This document shows positions 11,454 to 43,602 of a stretch of DNA of 46,184 nt, piece after piece. Made by a program: the position numbers and the translations under genes. This DNA comes from Hyphomicrobiales bacterium (lineage in GTDB: Bacteria; Pseudomonadota; Gammaproteobacteria; Pseudomonadales; Pseudohongiellaceae), in assembly GCA_035555995.1 (NCBI GenBank), contig DATMFX010000168.1:1-46184 (forward strand), given 5' to 3'. The notes beneath the pieces were generated by a model, which was given only the letters and a program-made list of their open reading frames with translations, was not told the origin of the DNA and searched no databases. The first letter of the stretch is position 1. Each line of letters opens with the position of its first letter.

Positions 11454-11454
11454 A

Positions 11455-22100: not shown

Positions 22101-22186
22101 GCGCCGAAGCCGGCAAGCAGCAGCGCCAGCAGGCAAGTAAGCAGGCGCTGGGTCAGCGCAAACTGGATGAGGCCGGCGAACATCAT
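19106..22186 (-). CDS. heavy-metal efflux RND permease, CzcA/CusA family
   Basis: 1026 aa. The N-terminus (MMFAGLIQFALTQRLLTCLLAL...IDAFPDISPTQVKVI) and QPIDMRVSEMLTGSRGDVAIKIFGDDLD are CzcA-family signatures. TM4 reads AIGMLVDSSIVIVEN. Two ATGs are present (22186 and 22183), and GGAGG sits just upstream. Confidence 0.92.
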   Translation of the reverse strand: MMFAGLIQFALTQRLLTCLLALLLAGFGASAMLQLPIDAFPDISPTQVKVIIKAPGMTPEEVETLITNPLEVELLGIPQQSILRSISKYALSSITLDFEEGTDIYWARQQVGERLGNVWEELPGSISGGLAPMSTPLGDMFMFTIENPALSLEEKRFLLDWTIRPALRTVPGVADVNALGGYVRTFEVKPKRERMTLLGFTHDDLVQALELNNRNDGAGRIDQGEEAILVRVTGAIVNVEDLGRIQVRNGDGVLLPLTELAEVKLGELERYGTVTADGVEEAVQGLVISLRGANADAVVEGVNAKLAELEATLPQDTSMNVFYDRSVLIGGAVKTVAKALLEAVVLVVVLLGLFLGNVRAALTVALVLPLSALFTFILMNRLDMSANLMSLGGLVIAIGMLVDSSIVIVENVVSTLAHAKARRSPLPLLHLVFRAVKEVAVPVTSGIFIIMIVFLPLLSLEGLEGKLFRPVTLTIVFALAGSLLLSLTLIPVVASWSLSADAHAEPWLSRKLDALYRPTLGRALHDPKPVLAGAALLLVLTALLFPFVGKTFMPTMDEGDLIIQTESIPSVNLRSSTRQVLLIEEAIMNAVPEVLRVVSRTGSDEIGMDPMGLNETDMFLQLRPRHEWEAGDKQGIEDKLRAVMNSFPGINFGFTQPIDMRVSEMLTGSRGDVAIKIFGDDLDMLSHYADAMAALINQVPGSIDTIATINEGAQYLQVEVDRLRAGELGLDADALQTQLRAEIEGYRVGTVIQGSARVPLMLRYRPLVGDGETALRQNLVTLPDGGYVPLAEVARIQRVEGPVVISREGGQRFAVVRTNVEGRDLVGFVAEAQQAVARQLDLAEGYTLEWGGEFENQQRAAARLALVVPVALLLIAFILFLTFRSVKQTLIILSMIPFALTGGLIALWLTGEFLSVPASVGFIALLGIAVLNGVVMLSYFNQLLAKGLHIDQVVFDGALRRLRPVMMTASICALGLVPLLLATGPGSEIQKPLAIVVVGGLISSTVLTLFLMPLIYRHFHRTPAAA

Positions 22187-23250
22187 TCGCCTCCCAATCC
22201 AAGCACCATCCCCTTGAGCAGGCTGGCGCCGCGCACCACCAGTTGTTCGTTGCCGGCAAGCGCGCCTTCCGGCGCAAGATAATCGGCGCCAAGCGGCTGC
22301 AATTCGAGCACCTTGCGCTCGATGCCGGCGGCAGTGCGAAGGAACACTGCGGTCTCAGCGCCATCGTGCACCACGGCATCGGCGGGAATGCGCCAACCAC
22401 CAGCGGTGGGCGAGAGCACCAGCGAGACGATCTCGCCGGCATGCAGCGGTACGGGACCGTCGAATTCGGCGCGAATGCCAAGCGTTTGCGTGCGACGGTC
22501 CACCTGGCGATCGATCTGACGCAGCGTCAGCGGCGTGTCCACGCCCGGCACGCTCAGCCGCTGTCCAATGGTGAGTCCTGTGGCCAAAGGCGCGGGCAGA
22601 TCGGCCTGCAACCACAATTGCGCCGCGCCAAAACGCAGCAGTGTTTGATCCACACTGATCGCGGACCCCACCGCCACTTCCAGCCGGCCCACCGTGCCGT
22701 CCATCGGCGCGCGCAAGGTATAGACGCCAAGCTGCGGCGAATCCGCGCTGAAACCGCTGCCCGACGCCAGACCCGCAAGCGTCAGCTGCGCGCGCAGTGC
22801 CGCGGCGCTGGCCTTGGCCGCCGCATACTCCTGTTCGGTTTCCTGCAGGCGCCGGGCGGCGATGATGCCGTCGTCGAACAAGCGGCGATCGCGCGCCTCG
22901 GCATTGTGGGCCAGCGTCAGCGCGGCATCGGCCTGCAACCACGCCTGCTGCAGCTGCAACACTTCCTGGCTGTGCACCGTGCCAAGCACGGCACCGGCTT
23001 CCACCGCATCGCCCGGCGCCACCTGCCAGGATTCCAGAACGCCCGCAAAACGCGCCACCAGCGCATCCGGCTGCAAGGGCGACACCAGCACCTGCGCCGA
23101 TACCACCGTGCCGCTGTCGGCGGTGGCGGGCTGCACGGTGGCCAGCACCAGGCCAAGACGATTCATGGTGGCCTGGTCCGGATTGCTCAGCACCTGGGCC
23201 TGGGCACCGCAACAGGCGGCGCACAGTAGCAATAGGGACAGGCGTTTCAT
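22183..23250 (-). CDS. heavy-metal RND membrane fusion protein (CzcB/CusB-like)
   Basis: 355 aa with a signal peptide (MKRLSLLLLCAACCGAQA). It has an adaptor-type coiled coil and barrel (LRAPMDGTVGRLEVAVG). Start/stop overlaps on both sides (ATGA). Confidence 0.85.
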   Translation of the reverse strand: MKRLSLLLLCAACCGAQAQVLSNPDQATMNRLGLVLATVQPATADSGTVVSAQVLVSPLQPDALVARFAGVLESWQVAPGDAVEAGAVLGTVHSQEVLQLQQAWLQADAALTLAHNAEARDRRLFDDGIIAARRLQETEQEYAAAKASAAALRAQLTLAGLASGSGFSADSPQLGVYTLRAPMDGTVGRLEVAVGSAISVDQTLLRFGAAQLWLQADLPAPLATGLTIGQRLSVPGVDTPLTLRQIDRQVDRRTQTLGIRAEFDGPVPLHAGEIVSLVLSPTAGGWRIPADAVVHDGAETAVFLRTAAGIERKVLELQPLGADYLAPEGALAGNEQLVVRGASLLKGMVLGLGGE

Positions 23251-24497
23251 GGCAGCACTCCGATCAATTGGTTGTATTCACTGACGAGCCGGTCGCGCTC
23301 CAGCTGCAATCTACGCAAGGCCTGGCGCGCGCCGATGGCGTCCTGCACCGCGGCAAGCACCTGCGCCAGCGTAAGCTCGCCGCCTTCGAACGCCGACTCC
23401 GCCATCGCACGGCGCTGTTCGGCCAGGGTGTTCTGTTCCTGCGCCAGCGGCAGCGCCTGTTCATTGATGAACAAGCCATGCTCCGCTTCGGCCAGCAGAC
23501 GCTGCAGCTCGATGCGGTTGCGGCGCAGTTCCACCTCGGCATCCACTTGCTCCCGCCGCGCGCTGCTGGTGCGGCTGTCCACCAGTTGCCTGCCGCCGAT
23601 CGGAATGCTGACCGACAACATCACGCTGTCGTTGCTTGGCTGAAAACGATCGCCGCGCTCGCTGTGGCTGCCGAGCGTGAGCTGAGGACTGCCCTTGGCA
23701 TCGAGCGCGCTTTGCGCCACGTTGCCCTGCGCAATGGCCACTTCGGACTGCAACAGGCGCAGCAGGGGATGATTGTCCGGAATGTCGTCCTCGCCACTGA
23801 GCGTTTCGCTGAACGGTTCCGCCGGACGACGGTCGAGTCCGGTCAGGATGAAAATCGTGCGCTCGGCATCGACCATGCGCGCTTCCGTCTCGAGAATGCG
23901 CTGCTGCTGTTCGAGCAGCAGGGTGCGGGTTTGCAGCGTGTCGAGTTGCGCCAGGCTGCCGGCTTCGAACAAACGCTGGGTGATGCGGTGCAGTTCCTCG
24001 GCGGCGCTGCCGGCCTCCCGTTCCAATTCGAGCCCGGCCTGTGCCGCTTCCAGTTCATTGAGCGCGGCGCGCAGGCGGCCGGCCAGTTCCCAATGCAGAT
24101 AGGTGGACCAGAGCGTCACCTGCGCCTGATAGTTTTCCCCCAGCGCCCTGGCCTGACGGCGTTCGCCCGGACGCCACAGCGGTAACTGCACGCCGACATC
24201 CTGCTGCCGCAGCCCCGTGTTGTCGCGCCAGCGGTCGTCGATGAGGTTGTAGATGACGCTGGGACGGCCCGCGACAAGGCTGTTGCCGGCGGCCTGCATG
24301 CCCCGCGCCTGCTGCGCGCGCACCGGCGTTTCCAACGCTTGCGGAGCCCGTTCGAGCGCGGCCTGGAGCATGGCGGAAAAATCGAGCCCTTCCTGAACTT
24401 CCAGATGCACGTGCTCGCCCGGTTCCGCCCGCGCCAATGCGGCAAGCGTTCCCAGCAGCAGCGCCGCCGCGCCATGCACGATGCGTTTGTTCCTCAT
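23247..24497 (-). CDS. TolC-family outer membrane factor (CzcC/CusC-like)
   Basis: From the ATG at 24497: MRNKRIVHGAALLLGTLAALARA is a signal peptide, followed by two OEP repeats rich in coiled-coil LQ.. heptads. The 89 upstream codons of the track ORF read through the intergenic repeat element and are rejected. Confidence 0.85.
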   Translation of the reverse strand: MRNKRIVHGAAALLLGTLAALARAEPGEHVHLEVQEGLDFSAMLQAALERAPQALETPVRAQQARGMQAAGNSLVAGRPSVIYNLIDDRWRDNTGLRQQDVGVQLPLWRPGERRQARALGENYQAQVTLWSTYLHWELAGRLRAALNELEAAQAGLELEREAGSAAEELHRITQRLFEAGSLAQLDTLQTRTLLLEQQQRILETEARMVDAERTIFILTGLDRRPAEPFSETLSGEDDIPDNHPLLRLLQSEVAIAQGNVAQSALDAKGSPQLTLGSHSERGDRFQPSNDSVMLSVSIPIGGRQLVDSRTSSARREQVDAEVELRRNRIELQRLLAEAEHGLFINEQALPLAQEQNTLAEQRRAMAESAFEGGELTLAQVLAAVQDAIGARQALRRLQLERDRLVSEYNQLIGVLP

Positions 24498-24549
24498 ACT
24501 TTCGGTCCACGATGCTCGAATGACAGCGCGGCAGTCTACGCAGGGGCAT

Positions 24550-24566
24550 GTGAAAATTTTGTCAAA
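24550..24566 (-). promoter_or_regulatory. direct-repeat box TTGAC-N6-TTCAC upstream of the outer membrane factor gene (candidate OmpR-family regulator site)
   Basis: Read on the minus strand: TTTGACAAAATTTTCAC. The half-sites lie at 24565-24561 and 24554-24550, 11 bp start to start, 53-69 nt upstream of the ATG at 24497. It mirrors the box at 24826-24852. Confidence 0.4.
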
Positions 24567-24625
24567 GGGGTATAGACGAGAGATCAAAGAAACGATGCCG
24601 TGCGTAACTTCGATGCCAACGGCTC

Positions 24626-24743
24626 GCAGCCGCCAGGCCGGATACCCTTTCGGGGGGCATTGATGGCCAGGGATGGCCATCACTGAGCGCACATGGATGT
24701 GCTTGTAGCGTCCCCCCGGAAGGGTATCCGGCCTGGTGGCTGC
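24626..24743. repeat. structured intergenic element, copy 2
   Basis: The core 24654-24715 matches 8216-8277 at 59/62 positions. Its hairpins are at 24661-24682 and 24689-24702. The outer arms 24626-24653 and 24716-24743 are complementary over about 32 bp (two positions would be G-U) but unrelated to the copy-1 arms. Confidence 0.8.
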
Positions 24744-24825
24744 AACAGACTCGATGCGGGCCAATATTCATCCCCAACCAAGCGACTGCCACAGACTCAA
24801 TACGGGCCACCCTCCAACCCACCAC

Positions 24826-29795: not shown

Positions 29796-31424
29796 CTACT
29801 GGAACCTGCCGCGCCGCGCATCGCGCAGTATCTCGCGCGCCGCATTGTGCCCCGGCACGCCGGTAACGCCGCCGCCGGGATGCGCGCCGGCACCGCACAG
29901 GTACAGGCCGCGCAGCGGCAGGCGATAGGCGGCCGCCCCCAGCACCGGGCGGGTATTGAACAACTGCCCCAGCCGCAGCTGGCCGTGGAAGATGTCGCCG
30001 TCGATCAGGCCGAAGCGCTGTTCCAAATCCAGCGGGGAGAGTACCTGGCTGCCGACGATGCTGGCGCTGAAATTGGGCGCGTGCCGGTTTACCGTGTCGA
30101 TCACCCGCGCGGCGAACGCCGCTTTTTCCGCCGGATCGTTCCAGTGCCTTGGCGCCGGCAGCGTGGGCGCCACATGCTGCACGAACAGGCTCGCCACGTG
30201 CTGCCCGGCCGGCGCCAGCGTGGGATCGAGCGTGGACGGCAGGAGCATTTCCACGATCGGTTCGTCCGACCAGCCATGCAGCGCCGCGGTGTGATAGGCG
30301 CGATCGAGGTAGTCCAACGTGGGGCCGATGACGATGCCGGCGCCATGGTGCGCCTGCGGCGCGGTGCCGGGGCGGCAGCGAAAATCCGGCAATTCGCGCA
30401 GGGCCACGTTCATGCGGAAGGTGCCCGACCCCGATTGGATGGCGCAAAAACGCTGGTGGGTGTCCTGTGGCACCGCGCCCGGCTCGATCAGGTCGCGGAA
30501 CAGCAGTTTGGGCGGCAGCGCCACCGCCACGCGCAGCGCCAACACGGTTTCGCCATCGGCAAGCGCCACGCCGCGCACCCGGCCATTGTCCGTGAGCACC
30601 CGCGCCACCGGCGCATTCAGCCGCAGCGTGACGCCCGCCGCCTGCGCCGCGCGGCTCATCGCCTGCGTGATGGCGCCCATGCCGCCAAGCGCATGGCCCC
30701 ACACACCCGGCTTGCCGTTCACCTCGCCGAAACAATGATGCAGCAGCACGTAGGCGGTGCCGGGCGTGTATGGAGAGGCAAACGTGCCCACCACGCCGTC
30801 GAAGGCAAACGCCGCCCGCACTACCTCGTGTTCGAACCAGCGCGCCAGGAATTCGGCGGCGCTGCCGGTGAAAAGGTCGATCAACACCTGCTGCTGGGCG
30901 CGGCTGCAGCCAAGCAGGCGCCGCGCCAGACGGCACCAGGTCAAGAGATCGCCAGGGGCCAGCGAATTGGGCGGTGTCATCAGCACCAGTTGGCGCAACA
31001 GCGCCGCCGCCTGTTCCAGCGTGGCTTCATACGCAGGCAACTGCTCGGCATCGTGGCGGGAAAACGCCGCGATCGCCGCCTGACGCGCCGCCATGCCGTA
31101 GGGAAACAGCAGTCCGCGTTCGGCGTCCACCGGCCAGAAATTCGCCACCGGGCGCTCGACGATGCGCAGCCCGTGCGCCGCCAGGTCGAGATCGGCAATC
31201 ACCTTGGGGTTGAGCAGGCTCACCGTGTAGGAAGCCACGGAGTTGCGGAAACCGGGGTGGAATTCCTCGGTGAGCGCCGCGCCGCCCGGCACCGCGTTCT
31301 TTTCCAGCACCACCACCGACAGCCCGGCGCGGGCGAGATAGGCGGCGCACACCAGCCCGTTGTGGCCGGCACCCAGGATGGCAACGTCGTAGTGGGGAGT
31401 GTGAGCAGAGCGCGGAGCGGACAT
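29796..31424 (-). CDS. FAD/NAD(P)-dependent oxidoreductase, phytoene desaturase (CrtI)-like family
   Basis: From the ATG at 31424: HYDVAILGAGHNGLVCAAYLARAGLSVVVLEKN is a Rossmann dinucleotide fold. The length (542 aa) and the C-terminal GAGAHPGGGVTGVPG are typical of COG1233-type enzymes. Confidence 0.78.
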   Translation of the reverse strand: MSAPRSAHTPHYDVAILGAGHNGLVCAAYLARAGLSVVVLEKNAVPGGAALTEEFHPGFRNSVASYTVSLLNPKVIADLDLAAHGLRIVERPVANFWPVDAERGLLFPYGMAARQAAIAAFSRHDAEQLPAYEATLEQAAALLRQLVLMTPPNSLAPGDLLTWCRLARRLLGCSRAQQQVLIDLFTGSAAEFLARWFEHEVVRAAFAFDGVVGTFASPYTPGTAYVLLHHCFGEVNGKPGVWGHALGGMGAITQAMSRAAQAAGVTLRLNAPVARVLTDNGRVRGVALADGETVLALRVAVALPPKLLFRDLIEPGAVPQDTHQRFCAIQSGSGTFRMNVALRELPDFRCRPGTAPQAHHGAGIVIGPTLDYLDRAYHTAALHGWSDEPIVEMLLPSTLDPTLAPAGQHVASLFVQHVAPTLPAPRHWNDPAEKAAFAARVIDTVNRHAPNFSASIVGSQVLSPLDLEQRFGLIDGDIFHGQLRLGQLFNTRPVLGAAAYRLPLRGLYLCGAGAHPGGGVTGVPGHNAAREILRDARRGRFQ

Positions 31425-31473
31425 GCGGGATGCTTCATGCAAGTGGACGGCGAAAGAGGATAGCATGCAGGCC

Positions 31474-31487
31474 TGCGCGTACGCGCA
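31474..31487. promoter_or_regulatory. perfect 14-bp palindrome TGCGCGTACGCGCA in a divergent promoter region
   Basis: Read directly. It lies between the oxidoreductase start (31424) and the corA start (31569). Function unknown. Confidence 0.25.
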
Positions 31488-31568
31488 AGCCGCGCCGGGC
31501 AAAAACAGGCCAGGAAAAAACCAGCATCAGGCAAAACAGGCCAACCAGGAACGGGAAAGGAACCAAGC

Positions 31569-32540
31569 ATGATACGCACACAGTTGCTGCTGCAGGACGA
31601 CACCCGGCTGCAGGGCGGCCTCGAACTGGTCGAGCGCTGGCGGCGCGAACCGGCGGCGCACCTGTGGGTGGACCTGGAGGACGAGCCGTTACCGAAACAG
31701 CGCGAATTCCTCGAGAGCATGGACTGCCATCCGTTGGCCATCGAGGACGTGCTGCGCTTTCGCACGCCGCCCAAGGTCGCCGACTACGACGCCTACACCC
31801 TGCTGCTCTACCGCGGCATTTCCGTCTTCAACCCCGACCTGACCACCGAACAGCAGACCATCGCGCTGTTCATCGGCGAACGCTGCCTGTTCAGCCTGCA
31901 CAAGCCGCTGGCCCGCGGCATCGACCATTATTGGGAACAGGCGTACAAGGAACAGCTGCTGCGCAGCCCCGGCCTGCTCGCCCTGCGCATCATGCGCCAT
32001 TCCATGGGCCACTACCTGGAAACGCTGCTCGGCTTCGAACCGCTGCTGGAGGAACTGGAAGACGCGATGCAGGAACGTTCCGACGATGCGCTGATGCGCG
32101 ATCTCATCGCGTACCAGTCGCGGCTGCGGCGCCTGAGCCGCGTATTCAGCTATCACGAACGCCTGATCCAGAATCTGCGCAGCGACATTCCGCAGCGGCT
32201 GTTGGATGAAGACGGCGACATCGAGAACGCCCTGCAGGATCTGTTCGAACGCTGCGAACGCATCCACAGCCTGTGCACCATGTACTACGAACTGTGCGCC
32301 GACCTGCTCCACGGCTATCTGTCGTTCTCCTCGCACCGCATGAACGGCACCATGCGCATCCTCACCGTGATCACCGCGCTGTTCCTGCCGCTTACCCTGA
32401 TCGCCGGCATCTACGGCATGAACTTCGACTACATGCCGGAACTGCACTGGCGCTATGGTTATTTCACGGTGCTTGGGGTGATGGGCACTCTGGCGCTGGC
32501 GCTCGGCGCCTATGCCTGGCGCAAATGGCTGGACGGCTGA
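31569..32540 (+). CDS. corA: CorA-family magnesium/cobalt transporter
   Basis: 323 aa. The C-terminus has two TM helices and the GIYGMNFDYMPEL signature (the YGMNF motif). Confidence 0.86.
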   Translation: MIRTQLLLQDDTRLQGGLELVERWRREPAAHLWVDLEDEPLPKQREFLESMDCHPLAIEDVLRFRTPPKVADYDAYTLLLYRGISVFNPDLTTEQQTIALFIGERCLFSLHKPLARGIDHYWEQAYKEQLLRSPGLLALRIMRHSMGHYLETLLGFEPLLEELEDAMQERSDDALMRDLIAYQSRLRRLSRVFSYHERLIQNLRSDIPQRLLDEDGDIENALQDLFERCERIHSLCTMYYELCADLLHGYLSFSSHRMNGTMRILTVITALFLPLTLIAGIYGMNFDYMPELHWRYGYFTVLGVMGTLALALGAYAWRKWLDG

Positions 32541-32608: not shown

Positions 32609-34852
32609 ATGCCTGCCAAGAACGTCATTCTCGAGCTTTCTCTCCTGCAAAAAGAGGTGGGCGAGCTGGCGTCGCCCGCCGAACAGGTGCGCAGGATCGT
32701 GGATTCCATTTCCGCCATCGTGGGCACCGACGTCTGCTCGCTGTACCTGCAGGATCAGCACCAGGACCTGGTGCTGATGGCCAGCCACGGGCTGGCGCAC
32801 AGCGCGCAGGTGGTCATTCCTGCCGGCCGCGGGCTGGTGGGGCTGGTGGTCAAGAGCCGCCACACCATCAACATCCCCCGCGCCAGCGATCACCCCGCCT
32901 ACTACTACGTCGAAGCCACGGCGGAGGAACGCTTCCAGAGTTTCTGCGGCATTCCGCTGGTGCACTACGGCAAGATCATCGGCGTGCTGGTGGTGCAAAG
33001 CCGCACCGCGGAGGCGTTGTCGCCCGAAAGCGAGGGCTTTCTGGTAACCCTTTCCTCGCAGCTGGCGCATCTGGTGGCCGACATGCCGCTCACGCTGCAC
33101 GGGCCGCACCTGAACACCTACGTGCGCGGCGTGAAGGGCAGTTCCGGCATCGGCATCGGCCAGGCGGTATTGTGCGATCACGGCGATCTGCTCGGCGTGC
33201 CGGACGAACCCTGCCCCGACGTCGAGATGGCCGTCGCCGAGTGGCATGCGCTGCGCCAGCGCGTGCAGCGGGACATCCAGCAGGAACAACAGCTGCTGGG
33301 CACGCTGCTCAACGACAACGTCTCCAGCATCTTCAACACCTACACCGCGCTGCTCAACGACCAGGCGCTGGTGGGCAGGGTGGAGCTGGAAATCCGCACC
33401 GGCAACTGGCTGCCCGGCGCGCTGCGCAAGAGCATCCAGCATTTCGCCGCACTGTTCCTCGCCATGGAGGACCCCTACCTGAGGGCGCGCCACGAAGACA
33501 TCTACCACCTCGGCAACAAGCTGCTCGCCTCGCTGCAGGGCAGCGCCGGCCTGGCGGAACGGGTGGAGCAGATCGACCAGGTGGTGCTGGTGGGCGACGA
33601 AGTCAGCATTTCCGACATCGCCGCCGTGCCGGGGGAAAAGCTGGTGGGCGTGATCTGCTTCGGCGGCTCCACGCTGTCGCACACGGCGGTGCTTGCCAAC
33701 GCGCTTGGCGTGCCGGCGGTGATGGGCGTGGGCGTGCTCAAGAACCTGCGCAACCGCGAACGCTTCATCGTGGACGGCAACAGCGGCCAGATCGTGCGCT
33801 ACCCCAACGACATGCTGTGCGCCGAATTCCAGCGCCTCATCGATGAAGAGCAACAGCTGGCCAACAAGCTGTCGGCGCTGCGCGACCTGCCCGCCCTTAC
33901 CCCCGACGGCTTCGAAATACGCCTGTTCACCAACTCGGGCCTGTTGGCTGACCTGTCGCCGGGGCTGCGCCACGGCGCGCAGGGCATCGGCCTGTACCGC
34001 ACCGAAATCCCCTTCATGGTGCGCGACAGCTTTCCCTCGGAGCAGGAGCAGATCGAGGTGTACAGGCAGGTGTTCAATGTCTACACCGGCAAGCCGGTGT
34101 ACATGCGCACGCTGGACGTAGGCGGCGACAAGCAGCTGCCCTATTTCCCGATTGCCGACGAAGCCAACCCTGCGCTTGGCTGGCGCGGCATCCGTTTTAC
34201 GCTCGACAATATTCAGCTATTGATGACACAGGTGCGCGCCATGCTGAGCGCGGCGGGCAGCGAGGGCGACCTGCACATCCTGCTGCCGATGATCAGCGGC
34301 GCCGAGGAACTGAACACCTTCAATGAACTGCTCGACGAAGCGCTCAAGCAGCTGACGCTGGAAGGCGTGCCGGTACGCCGTCCGCGCACCGGCGTGATGG
34401 TGGAAGTGCCCGCGGCGATCTCGCAGCTGCACTTTTGGCGTTCGCGCATCGATTTCGTGTCGATCGGCTCCAACGACCTCAGCCAGTATCTGCTGGCGCT
34501 GGACCGCAACAACGCGCGCGTGGCCAACCGCTACGACCACATCCACCCGGCGGTGATCCAGGAACTGAACCGCGTGGTCGGCATCGCCCGCCAGCATGAC
34601 CTGCCCCTGAGCCTGTGCGGCGAAATGGCCTCCGATCCGCTGGCGGTGATCCTGCTGGTGGGCATGGGCATCACCACGCTCAGCATGAGCGCCACCAAGC
34701 TGCCGCGCATCAAGTACCTGATCCGCGCCCTGCCCCGCCACAAGGCGGAAAGCGTGCTGCAGCAATGCCTGCAGCTCGACAACGTGCAGGACATCCGCGC
34801 GCTGCTGCACAGCACGCTGTTGTCGTTGCATCTGGGTGAATTGGTCAAATAA
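32609..34852 (+). CDS. ptsP: phosphoenolpyruvate-protein phosphotransferase EI-Ntr (GAF domain plus PTS enzyme I)
   Basis: 747 aa with an N-terminal GAF domain (VCSLYLQD...FCGIPLVHYGKIIGVLVVQS). EI motifs are present: GGSTLSHTAVLANALGVPAV (phospho-His loop), GIGLYRTEIPF and FVSIGSNDLSQY. Confidence 0.92.
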   Translation: MPAKNVILELSLLQKEVGELASPAEQVRRIVDSISAIVGTDVCSLYLQDQHQDLVLMASHGLAHSAQVVIPAGRGLVGLVVKSRHTINIPRASDHPAYYYVEATAEERFQSFCGIPLVHYGKIIGVLVVQSRTAEALSPESEGFLVTLSSQLAHLVADMPLTLHGPHLNTYVRGVKGSSGIGIGQAVLCDHGDLLGVPDEPCPDVEMAVAEWHALRQRVQRDIQQEQQLLGTLLNDNVSSIFNTYTALLNDQALVGRVELEIRTGNWLPGALRKSIQHFAALFLAMEDPYLRARHEDIYHLGNKLLASLQGSAGLAERVEQIDQVVLVGDEVSISDIAAVPGEKLVGVICFGGSTLSHTAVLANALGVPAVMGVGVLKNLRNRERFIVDGNSGQIVRYPNDMLCAEFQRLIDEEQQLANKLSALRDLPALTPDGFEIRLFTNSGLLADLSPGLRHGAQGIGLYRTEIPFMVRDSFPSEQEQIEVYRQVFNVYTGKPVYMRTLDVGGDKQLPYFPIADEANPALGWRGIRFTLDNIQLLMTQVRAMLSAAGSEGDLHILLPMISGAEELNTFNELLDEALKQLTLEGVPVRRPRTGVMVEVPAAISQLHFWRSRIDFVSIGSNDLSQYLLALDRNNARVANRYDHIHPAVIQELNRVVGIARQHDLPLSLCGEMASDPLAVILLVGMGITTLSMSATKLPRIKYLIRALPRHKAESVLQQCLQLDNVQDIRALLHSTLLSLHLGELVK

Positions 34853-34870: not shown

Positions 34871-35515
34871 CTACATGCGGATGATGCCGTGCGCCAGCGC
34901 CAGACGGATCAGTTCGGCGGAACTGGTGATGTTCAGCTTTTCCTTGATCTGCGTTTGGTAGTTGGCCACGGTCTTGATGCTGAGCGACAGGTCCTGCGCG
35001 ATTTCCTGCGCGTTCATGCCTTCGGCGAACTTGCAGAATATCTGGAATTCGCGCCGCGACAGCGCCCGCAGCGGCGTACCTGTGTCGAAGTTCTGGCGCA
35101 TGGTCAGCTGTTCGGCGAGCTTGGGGTCGATGTAGCTGTCGCCGCCGGCCACCACCTTCACCGCGTCGGTAAGCACCTTGGCGGCGTTGCTCTTGGTAAT
35201 GTAACCATTGGCGCCGGCGTCGAGCGCCTGTTCGACGAAGGCGATGTTCTCGTGCATGGTGAACACCAGGATGCGCATCTTGGGATCCTTGGCACGGATG
35301 CGGCGGATGGCTTCCAGGCCGCCCATGCCGGCCATCGACAGGTCCATGACGATCACGTCCGGGGCAATCTTGCCGATCTGCTGGTTGATCGCCTCGCCGC
35401 TGTCGAGCTCGGCGATCACTTCGATCTGCCCGCTGCTTTCCAGCAGCAGCCGGAAGCCGGTGCGCACCACCGCGTGGTCGTCCACCAGCACCACCTTGAG
35501 CGGATTACTTATCAT
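34871..35515 (-). CDS. NarL/LuxR-family response regulator
   Basis: LKVVLVDDHAVVRTG...DVIVMDLSMAGMGG is a receiver domain. A GerE-type HTH follows (LSRREFQIFCKFAEGMNAQEIAQDLSLSIKTVANYQTQIKEKL). It overlaps the kinase gene end by 11 nt. Confidence 0.9.
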   Translation of the reverse strand: MISNPLKVVLVDDHAVVRTGFRLLLESSGQIEVIAELDSGEAINQQIGKIAPDVIVMDLSMAGMGGLEAIRRIRAKDPKMRILVFTMHENIAFVEQALDAGANGYITKSNAAKVLTDAVKVVAGGDSYIDPKLAEQLTMRQNFDTGTPLRALSRREFQIFCKFAEGMNAQEIAQDLSLSIKTVANYQTQIKEKLNITSSAELIRLALAHGIIRM

Positions 35516-36470
35516 CCCGGCGCCTCCTCAGCTGGAATTTGCGCGGCACCCCTACCTGAATGGTCGTTCCCTTTCCTTCGTTGGAACTGATCTGCAGCGT
35601 GCCGCGCAGCAGCAGCACCCGGTCGCGCAACCCGCTCATCCCCATGCCGGTGCGCACCCGCTGGGGCGTGAAGCCCACGCCGTCGTCGGCGATGGTCAAG
35701 GTAACCACTTCCTGGCCGCTGAGCGTAATCGTCACCTGTTCCGCCTGGGCGTGCTTGGCCACGTTGGTGAGCGTTTCCTGCACGATGCGGTACAGGTTGA
35801 TCTGCTGCGGTTCCGCCAGGTCGGAAAAATCGCCGTCCACCTTCAGCCGGCAGAACGTATCTTCGTGGAAGATGTTCCAGTCGTCCACCATCTGCTGCAG
35901 AGCAAGCACCAGGCCCAGTTCGTCCAGCACCTGCGGGCGCAGCTCGGCCATCATATCGCGCACGCTGGAATAGGCGGTATCGGAGATGCGTTCGATGCTC
36001 AGCGCGCTTTCCGCCACCGCCGGATCGCTTTTGTCGGTGCGCATGGCAATCGACACCGCGGTGGCCTTGATGGCGCTCACCGCCTGCCCGAGGCTGTCGT
36101 GCAGTTCCTGCGCCAGGCGCCGGCGGTCCTGTTCCTGGATGGTCAGCGCCTGCTGCGCCAGGCGTTCGTTTTCGGAGCGGCTGGCACCGAGCACGGCGGC
36201 CAGCTCGTTGATGCGCTCGGCCACCTCGCGCAGCTCCGGCAGCGTCATGTCCGGCACCCGGCGGCCGTAGTCGCCGCGCACCATCTCCGCCAGGCTGTCG
36301 GCCATCAGTGCCAGCGGGCGTAGCCAGTAGCCCAGCGCCAGATAGACCACCACGCTGAACAACAACAGCAAAAACAGACTGCTCACCAGTTCGGTACGGG
36401 TGAGCAATAGCACGGCGCCGACCAGGTACATCAGCAGCACCAGCCCGGTCAGCCGCAGGCGCAGGCTCAC
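35505..36470 (-). CDS. HisKA_3-type sensor kinase with two closely spaced TM helices (no periplasmic domain) and a HAMP linker
   Basis: I chose the GTG at 36470 because it overlaps the upstream gene's TGA (GTGA) and immediately precedes TM1 (VSLRLRLTGLVLLMYLVGAVLLL-TRTE-LVSSLFLLLLFSVVVYLALGYW). The H box is LAQELHDSLGQ. HATPase is present (TIADDGVGF, GMGMSGLRDR). The start is uncertain. Confidence 0.8.
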   Translation of the reverse strand: MSLRLRLTGLVLLMYLVGAVLLLTRTELVSSLFLLLLFSVVVYLALGYWLRPLALMADSLAEMVRGDYGRRVPDMTLPELREVAERINELAAVLGASRSENERLAQQALTIQEQDRRRLAQELHDSLGQAVSAIKATAVSIAMRTDKSDPAVAESALSIERISDTAYSSVRDMMAELRPQVLDELGLVLALQQMVDDWNIFHEDTFCRLKVDGDFSDLAEPQQINLYRIVQETLTNVAKHAQAEQVTITLSGQEVVTLTIADDGVGFTPQRVRTGMGMSGLRDRVLLLRGTLQISSNEGKGTTIQVGVPRKFQLRRRRDDK

Positions 36471-37354
36471 AAACGGGCCCGCTCCACGATGCCCATGATC
36501 CGATACAACAGCTGCGCCGCCGCGTGATCGTAGGCCGGCTGCTGCGGCTGCGGGCAGAATTCGGTGAAATCCAGGCCGATGATATCGGCCTGCTGCGCGA
36601 TGGACTCGATGATGGACAGCACCTGCCACCAGCCCAGCCCGCCGGGAACACCGGTCGTGGAAGGAAACACCGACGGGTCGAAACCGTCGATGTCGAGGCT
36701 CAGGTACACTTTTTCCGGAAACTCGCTCGGCAGCTCCACCTTGGTGATGTTGCGCGCCACCAGGAAATCGGCATCGTAGTATTTGACGCCATACACGCGG
36801 CGCGCGTCGGATTCCTCCTTGGACAGGCTGCGCACGCCAAGCTGGAACAGGGGCACGTCTTCGTCGACGATGCGCTTCATCACGCAGGCTTCGCTCCAGG
36901 CGTCGCCGTTGTCGTCGTCGCGCAAATCGGCCTGCGCGTCGATCTGGATCACGCCGAAATCCTCGACGCCGGCATCGAGCAGCCCTTTCACCATGGCATA
37001 GCTGATGGTGCCGTCGCCGCCGAGGCCGATCGGAAATTTCTCGTCCTTGACCACCGTGGCCACCACCGTGCTGATTTTCTCCAGCACTTTCTCGGTATTG
37101 CCCTTGCAGTCGATGGCGCCGTGGGTGTGGATGCCGTGGCGGGACGGATTGCTGCGGCCATCCCAGGTTTCGAGCTGTTGCGAGGCCGCCAGGATGGCAT
37201 CGGGCGCGCTTGCCATGGCGGAAGTCTTGTAGCGTTCACCCGTATAGGGAACGGGCAGGATGTGAAAGAAGGCATCGGCCGGCTTGGCGGGTTTTACCGC
37301 TTCACCGAGAAAGTGCTGAGCTGCTGCGGCAGCTTTTGGTTTTGCGCTGGGCAT
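36467..37354 (-). CDS. arginase/agmatinase-fold protein with non-canonical active-site residues
   Basis: 295 aa and collinear with ureohydrolases. GLGGDGTISYAMVKG aligns with GGDHS, IQIDAQAD with DAHxD, WSEACVMKR with SHA..RR, and VYLSLDIDGFDP with SxDxDxxDP. It lies in an operon with speA and carboxy(nor)spermidine enzymes. Confidence 0.8.
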   Translation of the reverse strand: MPSAKPKAAAAAQHFLGEAVKPAKPADAFFHILPVPYTGERYKTSAMASAPDAILAASQQLETWDGRSNPSRHGIHTHGAIDCKGNTEKVLEKISTVVATVVKDEKFPIGLGGDGTISYAMVKGLLDAGVEDFGVIQIDAQADLRDDDNGDAWSEACVMKRIVDEDVPLFQLGVRSLSKEESDARRVYGVKYYDADFLVARNITKVELPSEFPEKVYLSLDIDGFDPSVFPSTTGVPGGLGWWQVLSIIESIAQQADIIGLDFTEFCPQPQQPAYDHAAAQLLYRIMGIVERARL

Positions 37355-37444
37355 TAACGGGATTTCCTCTCAATCCTGGCAGCGGAGGCTGCCGGCAACT
37401 AACAAGATCCGGACGGGTATCCGCCCCGTGACGCGCCTGCGTCA

Positions 37445-38627
37445 TCAGGACAGACGATTGCGGAAGTCTTGATACCCGAATTCACGGACGATTCGCAAGT
37501 CGTTCGTCTCGGAATTCCAGATTGCGAGCGTTGGCAGGCGCACGCCGTTGAAAGTTGTGGTCTTGACCATGGTGTAATGCGCCATGTCGTCGAACAGCAA
37601 ACGCTGCCCCACCCGCAGTGGTTCGGCAAAACTGTAGTCGCCCATCACGTCGCCGGCCAGGCAGCTCAGCCCGCCCAGGCGGTAGGTATGCGGCAGCACG
37701 CCGGGTTCGGCCGAATCCCTGATGTAGGCCCGGTAGGGCATTTCCAGCGTGTCGGGCATGTGGCAGGTGGCGGAACTGTCCAGTACGGCAATCGGCGCGC
37801 CGTTTTCCATCACGTCCAGCACCTCGCTCACCAGCACGCCGCTGCGGATGGCGATGGCTTCACCCGGTTCGAGATACACCTGCACGCCGTAGTGCTCGCT
37901 GAACGCGCGGATCCTGGCGATCAGACCGTCCACATCGTACTCGGGATGGCTGATATGGTGCCCGCCGCCGAAATTGACCCACTGCATCCGCTCCAGCAGA
38001 TCGGCGCACTGCGCCTCCACCGCGTCGAGCGTGCGCGCCAGCGGCGCGAAATTCTGCTCGCACAGCGTATGGAAATGCAGCCCGGAAAAACCCGACAGAT
38101 CCTGGCCCGCCAACTGGTTCACCGGCGTGCCGAGACGCGAACCCGGCGCGCAGGGGTCGTACAGCGGTACCGCGCCTTCGGAATGCAGCGGGTTGATACG
38201 CAGCCCGAACTGCAGGTGCGGCCGCGCCTCGCGCGCCTGTGCAACGAGCGGCTGGAAGTGCCGCCACTGGCTCAGCGTGTTGAACACCACGTGATCGGCG
38301 ATGCCGAGCACGTCGCGCAGATCGCTTTCGGTGAAGGCCGCCGAATAGACATGCACCTCGCCGCCGAATTCCTCGTGCCCGAGCTGCGCTTCCCACAGCC
38401 CGCTGGCGCAGGTGCCGCGCAGGTAGCGCCGGATGAGCGGCGCCAGCGCGAACATGGAAAAGGCCTTGAGCGCCAGCAGGACTTTTGCGCCGGATTCACG
38501 CTGCACGCGCTCGAGCACGCGCAGGTTGCGCTCCACGGCCACCTCGTCCACCACGAAGCAGGGCGAGGGCACCCGGGAGGGATCGAACTGCGCGAAGGTA
38601 TCGGCCGCGAGAGGCCGCGTTTGCGCG

Positions 38628-38635
<8 letters not shown>
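37445..38635 (-). CDS. nspC: carboxynorspermidine/carboxyspermidine decarboxylase homologue
   Basis: 396 aa. It has the alanine-racemase-fold PLP decarboxylase pattern (PCFVVDE...KVLLALKAF...GLHFH...NFGGGH...CLAGD) characteristic of NspC. Its TTG start overlaps the upstream stop (TTGTCTGA). Confidence 0.85.
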
Positions 38636-39836
<1,201 letters not shown>

Positions 39837-39888: not shown

Positions 39889-41796
39889 TCAATCCTCTTT
39901 TTCGTAGTACGTGTATCCGTTCAGGCTTTCGTTGAACAGCTTGATGATCTGCTGCCGTTCACGCGCGGTGATGCGGCCCTCGCGCACGGCGCGTTCGGCG
40001 GTGTTGCGGTGGCGCAGCTGCATTTCCTTGGGATGGAATTCCACGTAGGACAGCACGTCGCTGATGGCGTCGCCGTGCATCTCCTTGACGAAATCGAAGC
40101 CGCCGTCGCGGTTGATGCGCACGCTCACCACGTTGGTGTCGCCGAACAGGTTGTGCAGATCGCCCAGCGTTTCCTGGTAGGCGCCCACCAGGAACACGCC
40201 GAGATAGTATTCCTCGCCTTCCTTCATTGCGTGCAGCGGCAGCACCTTGACCACTTCCTCCACGCCCACGAAGCTGTCGATCTTGCCGTCGCAGTCGCAG
40301 GTAATGTCGGCGATCACCGCGCTGCGGCGCGGTTCTTCGTTCAACCGGTGCAAAGGTGCCACCGGAAACAGCTGGTCGATGGCCCAGGTGTCGGGCAGCG
40401 ACTGGAACAGGCTGAAATTGCCGTAGTAGATGTCCGCGAGCGATACCTTGAGGCCTTCCAGATCGGACGGCACGCGGGCCATGTTGTCGGTGATGTCGGC
40501 GATCTTGTGCAAGAGATCGAGGAACATGTTTTCCACCGCGCTGCGGGTGCGCAGGTCGAGCTGGCCGCGCTTGAACAGCTCGCGCGCCTCGTTGCGGTAG
40601 AAATGCGCATCGTTGTAGCACTCCTGCACGCGGCTTTCGCTGAGGTTGCCGTAAACGTCGCGCATGCGCGCAAGCAGGGGGTCTTCGTCCTCGTGCGCTT
40701 CCGGCAGGCGGGCGGGCTCGAACGTGGTGGTGTCGAGCACATTGAAGATCAGTATCGAGGAATAGGCGATGGTGGCGCGGCCCGATTCGGTAACGATCAC
40801 CGGATGCTCGATTTCGTAATCGTCGAAGGTGTTCTTGAGCGTATCGACGATGTCCTCGCAATATTCGCTCAGGGAATAGTTGCGGCTCTGCCCGAAATTC
40901 GAGCCCCAGCCGGTGTAGTCCACCGCCAGGCCGCCGCCAAGGTCGATGTATTTGAGATTGGCGCCTTCCTTCACCAGGTCGGCGTAGAAGCGGCACACTT
41001 CGACGATGCCGCTGCGGATGTCCTGAATGTTGGGAATCTGCGAGCCGAGATGGCAGTGCAGCAGCTGCAGGCAATGCAGCATGCCTTCTTCCTTGAGCAG
41101 GTCCACCAGGTCCACCAGCTGGGTGGCGGTAAGCCCGAACACGCTGCGGTCGCCGGAGGTGGAGTTCCAGTGGCCGCTGACGTTGACCGTGGTCTTGATG
41201 CGCACGCCGATGATCGGCTCGATGCCGAGCGCGCGGCTGCGTTCGAGGATGATCGGAATCTCGGTGGGGGTTTCCACCACGAACACGTAGATGAACCCCA
41301 GCTTGATGGCGGAAAGCCCAAGCTCGATGAATTCCTGGTCCTTGTAGCCGTTGCAGATGATCAGGCTGCCCGGCTCCTCCAGCGTGGACAGCGCGATCAT
41401 CATCTCGGCCTTGCTGCCCACTTCGAAGCCGTGCTTGTAGCGGGCGCCGAACGCGGCGATTTCCTCCACCACCTGCGCCTGCTGGTTGACCTTGATCGGA
41501 TAGACGCCGCGATACCCGTTCTGGTAGCCGAGCGTTTCGATGGCGTTGCCAAAGGCGGTGTTGAGGCGGTGAATCTGCGCGTCGAGAATGTTTTCAATGC
41601 GCAGCAGCACGGGCATGCGCAGATCGCGCTCGAGCATGCCGTTGATGATGTCCAGCAGCTCTACCTGGGCGTTGAGGGTGCGGGCGGTGACGTTGCCGGA
41701 CTTGGACACGCCGAAATAATCGTTACCCCAGCGTTCGAATCCGTACAGCTCGTTGGATTGCTCGATGGTCCATTCGGCCTGCTCGATGGCGTTCAA
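39889..41796 (-). CDS. speA: biosynthetic arginine decarboxylase
   Basis: The track ORF opens at TTG 41877 with no Shine-Dalgarno. The in-frame TTG at 41796 has GGAGGA (41811-41806) 9 nt upstream and gives MNAIEQAEWTIEQSNELYGFERWGNDYFGV, the usual SpeA N-terminus. The length (635 aa) and PLP-fold motifs fit. Confidence 0.9.
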   Translation of the reverse strand: MNAIEQAEWTIEQSNELYGFERWGNDYFGVSKSGNVTARTLNAQVELLDIINGMLERDLRMPVLLRIENILDAQIHRLNTAFGNAIETLGYQNGYRGVYPIKVNQQAQVVEEIAAFGARYKHGFEVGSKAEMMIALSTLEEPGSLIICNGYKDQEFIELGLSAIKLGFIYVFVVETPTEIPIILERSRALGIEPIIGVRIKTTVNVSGHWNSTSGDRSVFGLTATQLVDLVDLLKEEGMLHCLQLLHCHLGSQIPNIQDIRSGIVEVCRFYADLVKEGANLKYIDLGGGLAVDYTGWGSNFGQSRNYSLSEYCEDIVDTLKNTFDDYEIEHPVIVTESGRATIAYSSILIFNVLDTTTFEPARLPEAHEDEDPLLARMRDVYGNLSESRVQECYNDAHFYRNEARELFKRGQLDLRTRSAVENMFLDLLHKIADITDNMARVPSDLEGLKVSLADIYYGNFSLFQSLPDTWAIDQLFPVAPLHRLNEEPRRSAVIADITCDCDGKIDSFVGVEEVVKVLPLHAMKEGEEYYLGVFLVGAYQETLGDLHNLFGDTNVVSVRINRDGGFDFVKEMHGDAISDVLSYVEFHPKEMQLRHRNTAERAVREGRITARERQQIIKLFNESLNGYTYYEKED

Positions 41797-41961: not shown

Positions 41962-43602
41962 CTAGCTCAGCGGTCGACCGCGCGTTTCCGGAATCAGGAA
42001 CAGCAGCACCGCCACACCCAGCACCGTGGCCACCAGCGGATACCACAGTCCGAAATAAGGATTGCCGTTGGCCGCGGCCATGGCGAAGGCGATGGCGGGC
42101 AGAAAGCCGCCGAACCAGCCCGAGCCGATGTGAAACGGCAGCGACAGGCCGGTATAGCGGATGCGGGTGGGAATCAACTCGAACGCCATCAGCGGCCCAA
42201 GCGCGTACACCATGGTGGCGGGCAGCACCAACAGCAGCAACAGCACCGTGACCAGCAGCAGGTTGGCCCGGGCCGGATCGGGCGCAAGCACGTAACCTTC
42301 CTTGGTCAGGAGCGCGCTCAGCCGCTCCTGGAAATCGCGCTGCGCCACGGCCAGCCCCACCGGCCCGAGCGCGCGCCCGTCCACGCTCTGGATCGTGGAC
42401 GTGCCCACCTGCACCACGGCCAGGGTGCCGGGCGAGCCCTCGGCATTGCGGTAGCTGACGCCCATGAGGGTCAGCGCGCTCTTGGCGATGTCGCAGGAGC
42501 TGGCGAACGCGGCCTGCTCCACCGGATCGAACTGCCAGGAACATTCCTGCGAATCGCTGGTGACCAGCACCGGCGCCGTGATCGAGGCGGTGGCAAGCGC
42601 CGGGTTGACCGCATGGCCAAGCCCCTGGAACACCGGCACCATCAGGATCATCGACAGTGCCGCGCCGGTCAGCAGCAGCGGTTTGCGCCCGACACTGTCC
42701 GACCACCAGCTCCACAGCATGTAGAACGGCAGGCTGATCAGCGTCACCACCAGCATGATGAAGGTCATGGTGGCCTGCGGCAGCTGCAGGATGCGGATCA
42801 GGAAGAATTGCGCGTAGAACACCGCGGTGTAGAAAATCACGCCCTGCGGCACCATCAAGCCCAGCAGGATCACCAGCATCAGCCTGAGATTGCGCCAATC
42901 GCCGAAAATCTCGCCCACCGGCCGCCGCGCCGTGCGCTGCATGGCATCCATCCGGCGGAATGCCGGGGTTTCCTCCAGATGCAGCCGGTAACGCAGCGAC
43001 ACCGCCATCAGCACGATGGAAAACAGGAACGGCAGGCGCCAGCCCCACTGATCGAACGCCGCTTCGCCCAGGCTCCTGCGCACCAGGTACACCACCAGAA
43101 ACGACAGGAACAGGCCGGCGCCGCCCGCCACCTGCAGCCAGCCACAATACAGCCCGCGCTGCCCGGCGGGCGCATGTTCGCCGGCATAGACCACCGCGCC
43201 ACCGTATTCGCCACCGAATGCCAGCCCCTGCAGCAATCGCAGGGCGATCAGCAACGCCGGCGCCAGCAAGCCCACCGATTCATAGGACGGCAACAGGCCA
43301 ATGCTGAACGTGGCCAACCCCATCAGCGTGATCGTCATCAAAAAGGCGCGCTTGCGCCCCTTGCGGTCGCCAAGCGACCCGAACACCAGCGCGCCGAGCG
43401 GGCGCACCAGATAGCCGGCGGCAAAGGTCAGCAGGGTAAAGACGAACGCGGCCGTTTCATTGAGCGCCGAGAAGAAATGCCGGGAAAACAGTGGCGCCAA
43501 CGATCCATAAAGGATGAAGTTATAGGCTTCGAACGTCGTGCCCATCGCGGTGGTGAACACGATACGATCCAGCCTGTGTGCTGATTCGGGCGTGGCATTC
43601 AT
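41962..43602 (-). CDS. MFS transporter, metabolite:H+ symporter-like, with a ~118-aa loop inserted between TM9 and TM10
   Basis: From the ATG at 43602 (546 aa). GSLGDRKGRKRAF (the TM2-3 motif) and SDSVGRKP (the TM8-9 motif) are present. I counted 12 hydrophobic segments by eye, with a hydrophilic Cys-containing segment at residues 329-446. Confidence 0.85.
   Translation of the reverse strand: MNATPESAHRLDRIVFTTAMGTTFEAYNFILYGSLAPLFSRHFFSALNETAAFVFTLLTFAAGYLVRPLGALVFGSLGDRKGRKRAFLMTITLMGLATFSIGLLPSYESVGLLAPALLIALRLLQGLAFGGEYGGAVVYAGEHAPAGQRGLYCGWLQVAGGAGLFLSFLVVYLVRRSLGEAAFDQWGWRLPFLFSIVLMAVSLRYRLHLEETPAFRRMDAMQRTARRPVGEIFGDWRNLRLMLVILLGLMVPQGVIFYTAVFYAQFFLIRILQLPQATMTFIMLVVTLISLPFYMLWSWWSDSVGRKPLLLTGAALSMILMVPVFQGLGHAVNPALATASITAPVLVTSDSQECSWQFDPVEQAAFASSCDIAKSALTLMGVSYRNAEGSPGTLAVVQVGTSTIQSVDGRALGPVGLAVAQRDFQERLSALLTKEGYVLAPDPARANLLLVTVLLLLLVLPATMVYALGPLMAFELIPTRIRYTGLSLPFHIGSGWFGGFLPAIAFAMAAANGNPYFGLWYPLVATVLGVAVLLFLIPETRGRPLS

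Follow-up and report, generated by a model that had tools for sequence, protein, structure and literature searches.

Contig DATMFX010000168.1 of assembly GCA_035555995.1, deposited as Hyphomicrobiales bacterium and placed by GTDB in the Pseudohongiellaceae (Pseudomonadales), was analyzed from position 1 to 46,184, and this whole stretch of DNA is called the window below. Our subject is a gene at 36467-37354 on the minus strand, the product of which has the arginase fold but lacks the three hallmark histidines of agmatinases and arginases. The gene ends an operon that is predicted to produce spermidine by the carboxyaminopropylagmatine (CAPA) route, and it is followed by the genes for a sensor kinase and a response regulator. 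The genes and sites at the locus are as follows.

39889..41796, minus strand: biosynthetic arginine decarboxylase (speA), first gene of the operon, 635 aa by the JGI gene call; NF003763 806 bits and TIGR01273 708 bits, both above cut-off
38628..39836, minus strand: CAPA dehydrogenase (CAPADH)-type enzyme in the saccharopine dehydrogenase family; domains Sacchrp_dh_NADP and Sacchrp_dh_C (Pfam)
37445..38635, minus strand: decarboxylase of the CAPA (CAPADC) or carboxy(nor)spermidine type (nspC family); TIGR01047 477 bits, cut-off 409
37411..37426, minus strand: weak hairpin resembling a terminator, in the 90-nt spacer upstream of the His-less gene, from a consensus scan only
36467..37354, minus strand: His-less arginase-fold gene, intact open reading frame (ORF), 295 aa, derived from N1-aminopropylagmatine ureohydrolase (APAUH)
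37010..37012, minus strand: Gly115, codon GGC, at the position of the Mn(A) His ligand (His101 of rat arginase)
36932..36934, minus strand: Gln141, codon CAG, at the position of the Mn(B) His ligand (His126)
36890..36892, minus strand: Glu155, codon GAA, at the position of the proton-shuttle His (His141 of rat arginase)
36686..36940, minus strand: span of the codons for the four kept Asp ligands, D139 (36940-36938), D143 (36928-36926), D221 (36694-36692) and D223 (36688-36686)
36560..36562, minus strand: Glu265, codon GAA, equivalent to the guanidinium-binding Glu277 of arginase
35505..36470, minus strand: sensor histidine kinase, 321 aa, with two transmembrane (TM) segments, HAMP, HisKA_3 and HATPase; Pfam domains, JGI gene call
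34871..35515, minus strand: NarL/LuxR-type response regulator with Response_reg and GerE

The codons were read on the DNA, and the residues were placed by alignment.

The operon and the motifs of the His-less protein

In the CAPA route, arginine is converted to agmatine, which together with aspartate semialdehyde yields carboxyaminopropylagmatine; this is converted to N1-aminopropylagmatine, from which APAUH produces spermidine and urea (Xi et al., 2023, PMC10599626). The route was described only in 2023 and is reported to be common in marine and freshwater Proteobacteria. The window dehydrogenase resembles 4RL6 (E 7e-161), which is biochemically a CAPADH (Xi et al., 2023, PMC10599626), and reached 421 bits on the carboxynorspermidine synthase equivalog, below the cut-off of 800. 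Its residues N108, F117 and E233 align with the published CAPADH signature N104/F113/E228, and N108, F117 and H232-E233 align with both 8H4Z (at a constant offset of 10 from the published numbering) and 4RL6, so that the N/F/E residues are present rather than those of CASDH or CANSDH. Because the dehydrogenase resembles 4RL6, carries the N/F/E signature and misses the carboxynorspermidine synthase cut-off, we assign the operon, on sequence grounds, to the CAPA spermidine pathway. The operon is thus agmatine-based and is not of the putrescine/carboxyspermidine kind.

The dehydrogenase and decarboxylase genes overlap by 8 nt, and the order speA, dehydrogenase, decarboxylase and arginase-like gene is found at all informative loci of the homologues described below. 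Upstream of the arginase-like gene, the spacer that follows the decarboxylase gene measures 90 nt in the window (37355-37444) and 13-156 nt at the loci encoding His-less homologues, compared with 8-12 nt at the loci encoding canonical enzymes; the comparison covered L005-L020 and L021-L026. The promoter/terminator scan found nothing beyond the weak hairpin upstream of the His-less gene, the number of sites not being clearly above the shuffled expectation, and an Rfam scan of the whole window revealed no riboswitch or other RNA family. No second ureohydrolase, agmatine deiminase or spermidine synthase was present among the window ORFs scanned against Pfam.

The arginase family model PF00491 (Pfam) matches the window protein nearly end to end, from HMM position 4 to 279 of 280 (276/280; E 4.4e-50). 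On the agmatinase model TIGR01230, with a curated cut-off of 174.3 bits, the window protein scored 159.3 and the homologue P0007 150.2 bits, and the canonical sisters scored 213-232 bits, above the cut-off. The top PDB match of the window protein, in both sequence and predicted fold, was 3PZL, which is biochemically an APAUH from T. volcanium (Xi et al., 2023, PMC10599626). The AlphaFold2 (AF2) model had a mean pLDDT of 90.8, and a Foldseek search with this model gave a TM score of about 0.8 to 3PZL and 1WOG; metformin hydrolase chains were also among the top structural matches, with a TM score of about 0.8. In other gammaproteobacteria, the canonical relatives P0078, P0095 and P0120, with the motifs GGEHT/DAHAD/YSHAS, are encoded at this very place in an identical four-gene operon. 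These relatives and the best match to 3PZL show therefore that the His-less protein descends from APAUH, the terminal enzyme of the CAPA pathway.

The motif columns were set by aligning the window protein residue by residue in HMMER to 3PZL, 6VSU, 6VSS and 3LHL, and were confirmed on 119 homologues. In the alignment with the four solved structures, GGDGT falls on GGEHS/GGDHS, DAQAD on DAHSD/DAHPD/DAHTD and WSEAC on YNHAC/YSHAS. The initial annotation had claimed an intact ORF in which Gly, Gln and Glu replace the three hallmark His residues, and each of these claims was upheld by the DNA, by the Pfam model, and by the structures and homologues. Two members of the six-ligand set H-D-H-D-D-D are changed, both of them His, and the four Asp are present. 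D114, which had been counted with D139, D143, D221 and D223 as a kept metal ligand, only adjoins a ligand His, and the other four stand as ligands. The proton-shuttle His is absent as well (E155); this residue is not obligatory, as the peptide arginase OspR has Ile at the position.

Conservation and site changes in the His-less clade

A search of 5.8 billion proteins separated the homologues sharply by identity. The first group comprised 76 clusters at 69-100% identity to the query, of which one is a fragment and 75 are full-length, and the next-best matches, at 50-57% identity, formed a second group, of which the 43 ordinary members are without exception H/H/H at the three positions. In the first group, position 115 is G in 75/75, position 141 is Q in 71/75 (H in 3 and R in 1) and position 155 is E in 72/75 (Q in 3). 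These 75 clusters, with the common motifs GGDG/DAQAD/WSEAC, are monophyletic in a neighbor-joining tree, so that the survey for homologues with G/Q/E at these columns that had been suggested for the window protein returned a single clade. Its members are ~70-80% identical to one another and yet carry identical replacement residues. The triple His replacement is due neither to chance nor to a sequencing error.

The residues at the former active site are among the best conserved of the clade. The four Asp ligands are 97-100% conserved and E265 is E in 72/75 members; G115, Q141, E155 and the four Asp range from 95 to 100%, whereas just 37% of all sites reach 97%. With D114, E62, E180 and E181 included beside E265 and the four Asp, conservation is 91-100%. 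E62, which is conserved in the clade, was matched to E60 of APAUH by its motif position and by conservation in 3PZL, not through an alignment to Sll0228. E180/E181, compared with E187 of APAUH, are likewise conserved. R145 stands two residues past the final Asp of DAQAD, as does R151 past D149 in APAUH; 40 clade members have R here and 35 have K. The clade has also acquired two conserved His residues, H73 and H76 (RHGIHTH), which align to a peripheral strand region of 3PZL. An amidinotransferase-like role of the invariant C157 was considered and rejected, because several canonical relatives and 3PZL share a Cys at this position.

Pairwise dN/dS was calculated over 17 loci of the His-less clade and the window contig, and since dS is near saturation the values are rough: about 0.115 for the His-less gene, 0.081 for arginine decarboxylase, 0.065 for the dehydrogenase, 0.085 for the decarboxylase and 0.167 for the response regulator. 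The ranking is clear nevertheless, and the His-less gene is under strong purifying selection. The initial view that this is not a decaying pseudogene is borne out by a monophyletic clade sharing the same three substitutions and by a dN/dS close to that of the biosynthetic neighbors (0.065-0.085). The host assemblies of the His-less loci are uncultured Pseudomonadales/Pseudohongiellaceae metagenome-assembled genomes (MAGs), mostly from lakes, reservoirs, rivers and soil; the window, too, is a metagenome contig.

A site-by-site comparison was made between the 75 His-less and the 43 canonical sequences. Thirteen sites are conserved in both groups yet different between them, including the three His positions, V41R, T47M, K67R, E114D, Y148D and S157C. 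Another 32 sites are at least 95% conserved in canonical enzymes and variable in the His-less clade; 19/32 lie in the catalytic-face loops, which were defined on the AF2 model as the loops that come after the central strands at their C-terminal ends, against a background of 82/295 (odds ratio 4.6, p = 7e-5). Among the relaxed sites is the S-T-G-T-V loop, which is invariant in canonical enzymes. Its column 235, equivalent to T242 of APAUH and T246 of arginase, is T in 42/43 canonical enzymes and A in 54, S in 14 and G in 7 clade members; the window protein has G there, alongside T233 and T234. T242 of APAUH hydrogen-bonds the guanidine group and is conserved across ureohydrolases (Xi et al., 2023, PMC10599626). 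Conversely, 14 sites are newly constrained in the clade; only 1/14 is in the catalytic-face loops, and most are charged residues in helices and the C-terminal tail. Within the active-site loops, G39, R41, M47 and D148 are newly fixed. These patterns show that the former active site has been rebuilt and maintained rather than having simply decayed, and the kept pocket would fit either a metal-free acidic pocket that binds polycations or an all-oxygen metal site.

Among the 150 nearest representatives of a library of 1.84 billion proteins clustered at 50% identity, 137 carry the full H-D-H-D-H-D-D pattern and none carries G/Q/E with the four Asp. This library does not set the clade apart, and its best full-length representative is 52% identical to the window protein and degenerate in another way. 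Three degenerate homologues were each found directly downstream of a CAPADC-like gene; they have lost different catalytic residues (given in arginase numbering), independently of the His-less clade.

L026, 732-1625: P0082, with H126Q, D128N, H141Q and E277G, followed by a gene for a 451-aa kinase
L027, 8001-8888: P0121, with H141R and D234Q, and a 658-nt spacer upstream
L029, 909-1685: P0169, with H101Q, H126R, D128N and D234S, after the CAPADC-like gene

Two further non-canonical representatives, P0181 and P0152, are on short contigs, and no CAPA genes were seen near them. The three homologues suggest that catalysis of the last step has repeatedly become dispensable in CAPA operons while the gene persists. 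Among species with CAPADH/CAPADC, 56% lack APAUH, in place of which they carry agmatine deiminase and N-carbamoylputrescine amidohydrolase-like genes (Xi et al., 2023, PMC10599626), which would be a natural source of redundancy for this step.

The clade members are mostly named "agmatinase" by JGI and "arginase family protein" by NCBI, and the 50%-identity library merges them with canonical or otherwise degenerate enzymes. CAPA surveys find the last enzyme by homology thresholds, which the clade passes, as the JGI name shows; therefore, such surveys would count the clade as functional APAUH.

Some variation was observed within the clade. The singletons P0040, P0044, P0053 and P0064 each have one Asp missing. 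At L020 (3562-4627), the His-less gene is in two overlapping pieces (query residues 15-230 and 171-295), and P0076 is the resulting 230-aa fragment; this split points to a duplication within the gene, to a frameshift or to an artefact of the assembly. Two contigs with the clade operon are labeled Klebsiella pneumoniae (L018, CAMDML01) and Candidatus Acidoferrum sp. (L012, DATJXP01), and their synteny with and 73-77% identity to the Pseudomonadales loci suggest that they are mislabeled or mis-binned.

Function of the His-less protein

The window protein shares with APAUH (Sll0228 of Synechocystis; 3PZL; PMC10599626) its fold, its length and its slot after the arginine decarboxylase, CAPADH and CAPADC genes; it keeps the four Asp, the Glu277 equivalent, E62, R145 and E180/E181, and is 50-57% identical to the canonical operon counterparts. 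It differs in the absence of the two His ligands, the shuttle His and the Thr equivalent to T242, in the relaxed loops, in a score below the agmatinase cut-off and in the longer spacer upstream of its gene. All characterized active enzymes of the arginase fold that were examined keep both His ligands, even the very divergent OspR, which works without the shuttle His. In contrast, the known members that lack the full ligand set are inactive, namely MetCb, the arginase-like protein of T. brucei and the ornithine decarboxylase (ODC)/arginase domain of Fusobacterium. Canonical Mn2-ureohydrolase chemistry is thus unlikely for the window protein, given that the active enzymes examined keep both His and that its substrate-positioning loops are relaxed. 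To this extent the initial annotation, which had proposed altered metal usage, altered chemistry or a non-catalytic role, still stands.

Of the readings that follow, we favor one to which we give about an even chance: that the His-less protein is an APAUH-derived pseudoenzyme with an acidic ligand pocket and a non-catalytic job. It is ranked above an active enzyme because the catalytic loops are relaxed and there is no precedent for activity without the His ligands. One lineage of uncultured freshwater and soil Pseudomonadales, including Pseudohongiellaceae, has lost both His ligands, the shuttle His and the guanidinium-positioning Thr, and its protein would no longer carry out canonical Mn2-dependent hydrolysis. 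The folded protein would have been kept, its former active site becoming a very acidic pocket formed by the four Asp, D114, D148, E155 and E265, with R41 and R67 as new residues. This pocket would retain the residues that serve APAUH at the polyamine end of aminopropylagmatine (E62, R/K145 and E180/E181), and may bind a polycationic metabolite of the pathway, such as aminopropylagmatine, agmatine or spermidine, without turnover. Through contacts with other proteins it might then regulate the pathway, act as its sensor or scaffold it. The ancestry, the identity of the operon, the loss of the His residues, their replacement throughout the clade, the purifying selection and the relaxed catalytic loops are shown by the analysis, whereas loss of the metal, loss of activity, ligand binding and the non-catalytic role are what we infer here.

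Pseudoenzymes with the arginase fold are already known, while a His-less APAUH with all Asp kept was not met in the literature searched. As the initial annotation had surmised, our search found no report of a His-less APAUH, nor of a pseudoenzyme in bacterial operons for polyamines, whether CAPA or other. Two known cases, the arginase-like protein of T. brucei (Hai et al., 2015) and the Fusobacterium ODC/arginase domain (Mothersole et al., 2022), have no ureohydrolase activity and are alike in that the arginase fold evolved there without a binuclear Mn cluster, but they belong to other subfamilies, organisms and contexts, and were compared here only via the list of PDB matches (4RHI and related). 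A conceptual parallel may be drawn to eukaryotic polyamine metabolism, in which dead copies of pathway enzymes are kept as regulators. Examples are the AdoMetDC prozyme, antizyme inhibitor and a dead deoxyhypusine synthase paralogue, which have other folds and act on an active paralogue.

Several points weigh against a pseudoenzyme. The four Asp and E265 are conserved as well as in real enzymes, as an active metal site would show, and Q and E at the former His positions can coordinate or orient hard metals (Mn2+ or Mg2+, for example). At 141, H is still found in three clade members. The newly conserved G39, R41, M47 and D148 in the active-site loops represent a remodeled pocket, not mere decay, and another side chain, such as the clade-specific H73 or H76, may reach the site. 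An inactive protein would leave aminopropylagmatine as the end product of the operon, barring another enzyme for the last step. Moreover, no interaction partner was identified for the His-less protein.

These points lead to the strongest alternative, an enzyme that is still a hydrolase, which we regard as unlikely although a genuine contender. An all-oxygen metal center made of the four Asp, Q141, E155 and possibly D148 would hold Mn2+, Mg2+ or Ca2+, and the protein would release urea and the amine from aminopropylagmatine or a related guanidine, with Glu155 as the proton shuttle. The strict conservation of the four Asp, E265, E62, E180/E181 and the replacement residues is what this explanation predicts; the swaps of Q for H at 141 and of E for Q at 155 are tolerated, OspR is active without a shuttle His, and the gene still ends an otherwise intact CAPA operon that needs this step for spermidine. 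On the other hand, we found no characterized active arginase-fold enzyme without either His ligand, and the S-T-G-T-V loop that positions the guanidinium group is relaxed, together with other catalytic-face loops. R145 is replaced by K in about half of the clade, whereas R151 is important for APAUH, of which R151A and R151N keep just 1-6% activity (Xi et al., 2023, PMC10599626). The coupling to the decarboxylase gene is also looser than in canonical operons. In rat arginase, substitution of the His ligands costs some two to three orders of magnitude of activity.

With an inactive clade, CAPA predictions would fail at the final step for an entire group of abundant freshwater bacteria, and the cells would either accumulate a guanidino-polyamine or complete the pathway by another enzyme. 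An active clade, in turn, would provide the first hydrolase of the arginase fold without His metal ligands and would change the accepted ligand requirement of this very well studied metalloenzyme family. Either way, the clade is a natural and strongly conserved test case for the passage from a terminal biosynthetic enzyme to a pseudoenzyme.

A second alternative concerns the downstream kinase. The kinase gene starts with a GTG that runs into the TGA stop of the His-less gene, a 4-nt overlap (GTGA, 36470-36467) that matches the initial annotation and an independent JGI call, and the regulator gene overlaps the kinase gene by 11 nt. The protein could be a cytoplasmic ligand-sensing partner of this kinase, binding a polyamine intermediate and modulating the kinase/regulator pair like a retired trigger enzyme; we judge this to be decidedly unlikely. 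The same 4-nt overlap is found at L006, L009, L010, L014, L015, L018 and L019, where the kinase arrangement is intact (it is broken at L020), while the spacer on the upstream side is loose, and this combination favors some link between the protein and the kinase. The window kinase is a short form that lacks a segment of ~125 aa, with its TM helices ~7 residues apart, and only L010 shares this form; having lost the periplasmic domain, the two kinases would need another input. The newly constrained residues outside the catalytic-face loops would also be consistent with a new interaction surface.

However, L021 encodes a canonical, His-containing enzyme followed by an orthologous 448-aa kinase (52% identity) with the same 4-nt overlap, and a kinase also follows the degenerate P0082. 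Most orthologous kinases, at L021 and at most His-less loci, are 444-451 aa long and keep the ~125-aa segment between the TM helices as a periplasmic domain. The kinase and regulator are absent from L004, L005, L011, L013 and L017 and left as a remnant at L008, and the His-less gene is conserved at all of these loci. In addition, synteny reaches to PtsP and CorA downstream, so that part of the linkage is lineage history. Because of the overlap at L021 and the kinase-less loci, the kinase linkage predates the loss of the His residues, and the kinase is not needed for keeping the His-less gene. The initial annotation had raised the idea of a ligand-sensing partner, which is weakened by the canonical enzyme with the same overlap, by the own periplasmic domains of most kinases and by at least four lineages that have lost the kinase and kept the protein. 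Of the neighbors whose constancy it had proposed to survey, the speA- and nspC-type genes are constant at all informative loci and the kinase is not.

A few features of the two-component genes were observed in passing. The extra segment of the L026 kinase has a weak match to LapD_MoxY_N. L008 retains a regulator fragment (residues 22-93; 8530-8745) without a kinase, and at L018 (12170-12801) the response regulator gene is split between two frames; both look like stages in the loss of the two-component pair.

A more specific form of the pseudoenzyme reading is a longer shot still. In this form, the operon of these freshwater Pseudomonadales would stop at N1-aminopropylagmatine, a guanidino-polyamine, and no longer yield spermidine. 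The His-less protein would serve as the receptor of this compound, free of metal, and as a retired trigger enzyme would pass on the output of the pathway to the translationally coupled kinase/regulator pair where it is present and otherwise directly to the biosynthetic enzymes. If true, the three other degenerate homologues would mark a recurrent route from a terminal enzyme to a metabolite sensor.

A third alternative, that the protein is a non-catalytic subunit of a canonical ureohydrolase paralogue encoded elsewhere, is very unlikely. The precedent is the Ni-dependent metformin hydrolase (PMC11271267), in which MetCb/MfmB, an arginase-fold pseudoenzyme, is essential to its catalytic paralogue; as noted, metformin hydrolase chains are among the top structural matches (TM score of about 0.8). 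MetCb and the window protein are alike in having a bacterial arginase fold, in the loss of metal ligands and in being under selection, and the non-catalytic role proposed for the window protein is known for the metal-free MetCb (PMC11271267). In MetCb-clade proteins, however, three to five of the six ligands are changed, including Asp, and MetCb is encoded beside its catalytic paralogue MetCa and Ni chaperones. The window protein has lost 2/6 ligands, only His, stands in the context of polyamine biosynthesis, and has neither an adjacent paralogue nor Ni-chaperone genes nearby. A tblastn search with the window protein as query (E <= 1e-10) detected no second arginase-fold gene in the 17 His-less loci, which reach up to 10 kb to either side as far as the contigs go, and there is none among the window ORFs scanned against Pfam.

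Finally, a gene on its way to loss, with substitutions that have no functional meaning, might be seen in the Asp-less singletons P0040, P0044, P0053 and P0064 and in the duplicated or frameshifted MAG copy at L020, but this extremely improbable explanation is already all but refuted by the observed conservation: 75 clusters have an intact ORF, dN/dS is ~0.115, the replacements are identical at ~70-80% identity and the fold is predicted confidently.

Neighboring genes in the window

Three further genes lie downstream of the operon.

32609-34852, plus strand: GAF-domain PtsP gene
31569-32540, plus strand: CorA gene
29796-31502, minus strand: flavin amine-oxidase-family gene

PtsP keeps its downstream place across the His-less loci and CorA does so in about half of them, and the amine-oxidase-family gene was seen on the window contig only; a part of the latter in polyamine catabolism is possible. 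Upstream of speA is a transporter gene of the major facilitator superfamily (MFS; Sugar_tr/MFS_1) at 41962-43560 on the minus strand, the position of which is kept at L005, L008, L010 and L017 and which is not found beside canonical operons.

Farther away are two efflux systems of the resistance-nodulation-division (RND) type, each with an AcrB-type pump and an HlyD-type adaptor, at 8379-12561 and 19106-24764 on the minus strand, the second with an outer-membrane factor. Genes for a LytS-type His_kinase (14706-15848) and a MacB/FtsX-type permease (16254-18740) lie between them, and neither these nor the efflux systems are related to the His-less gene.

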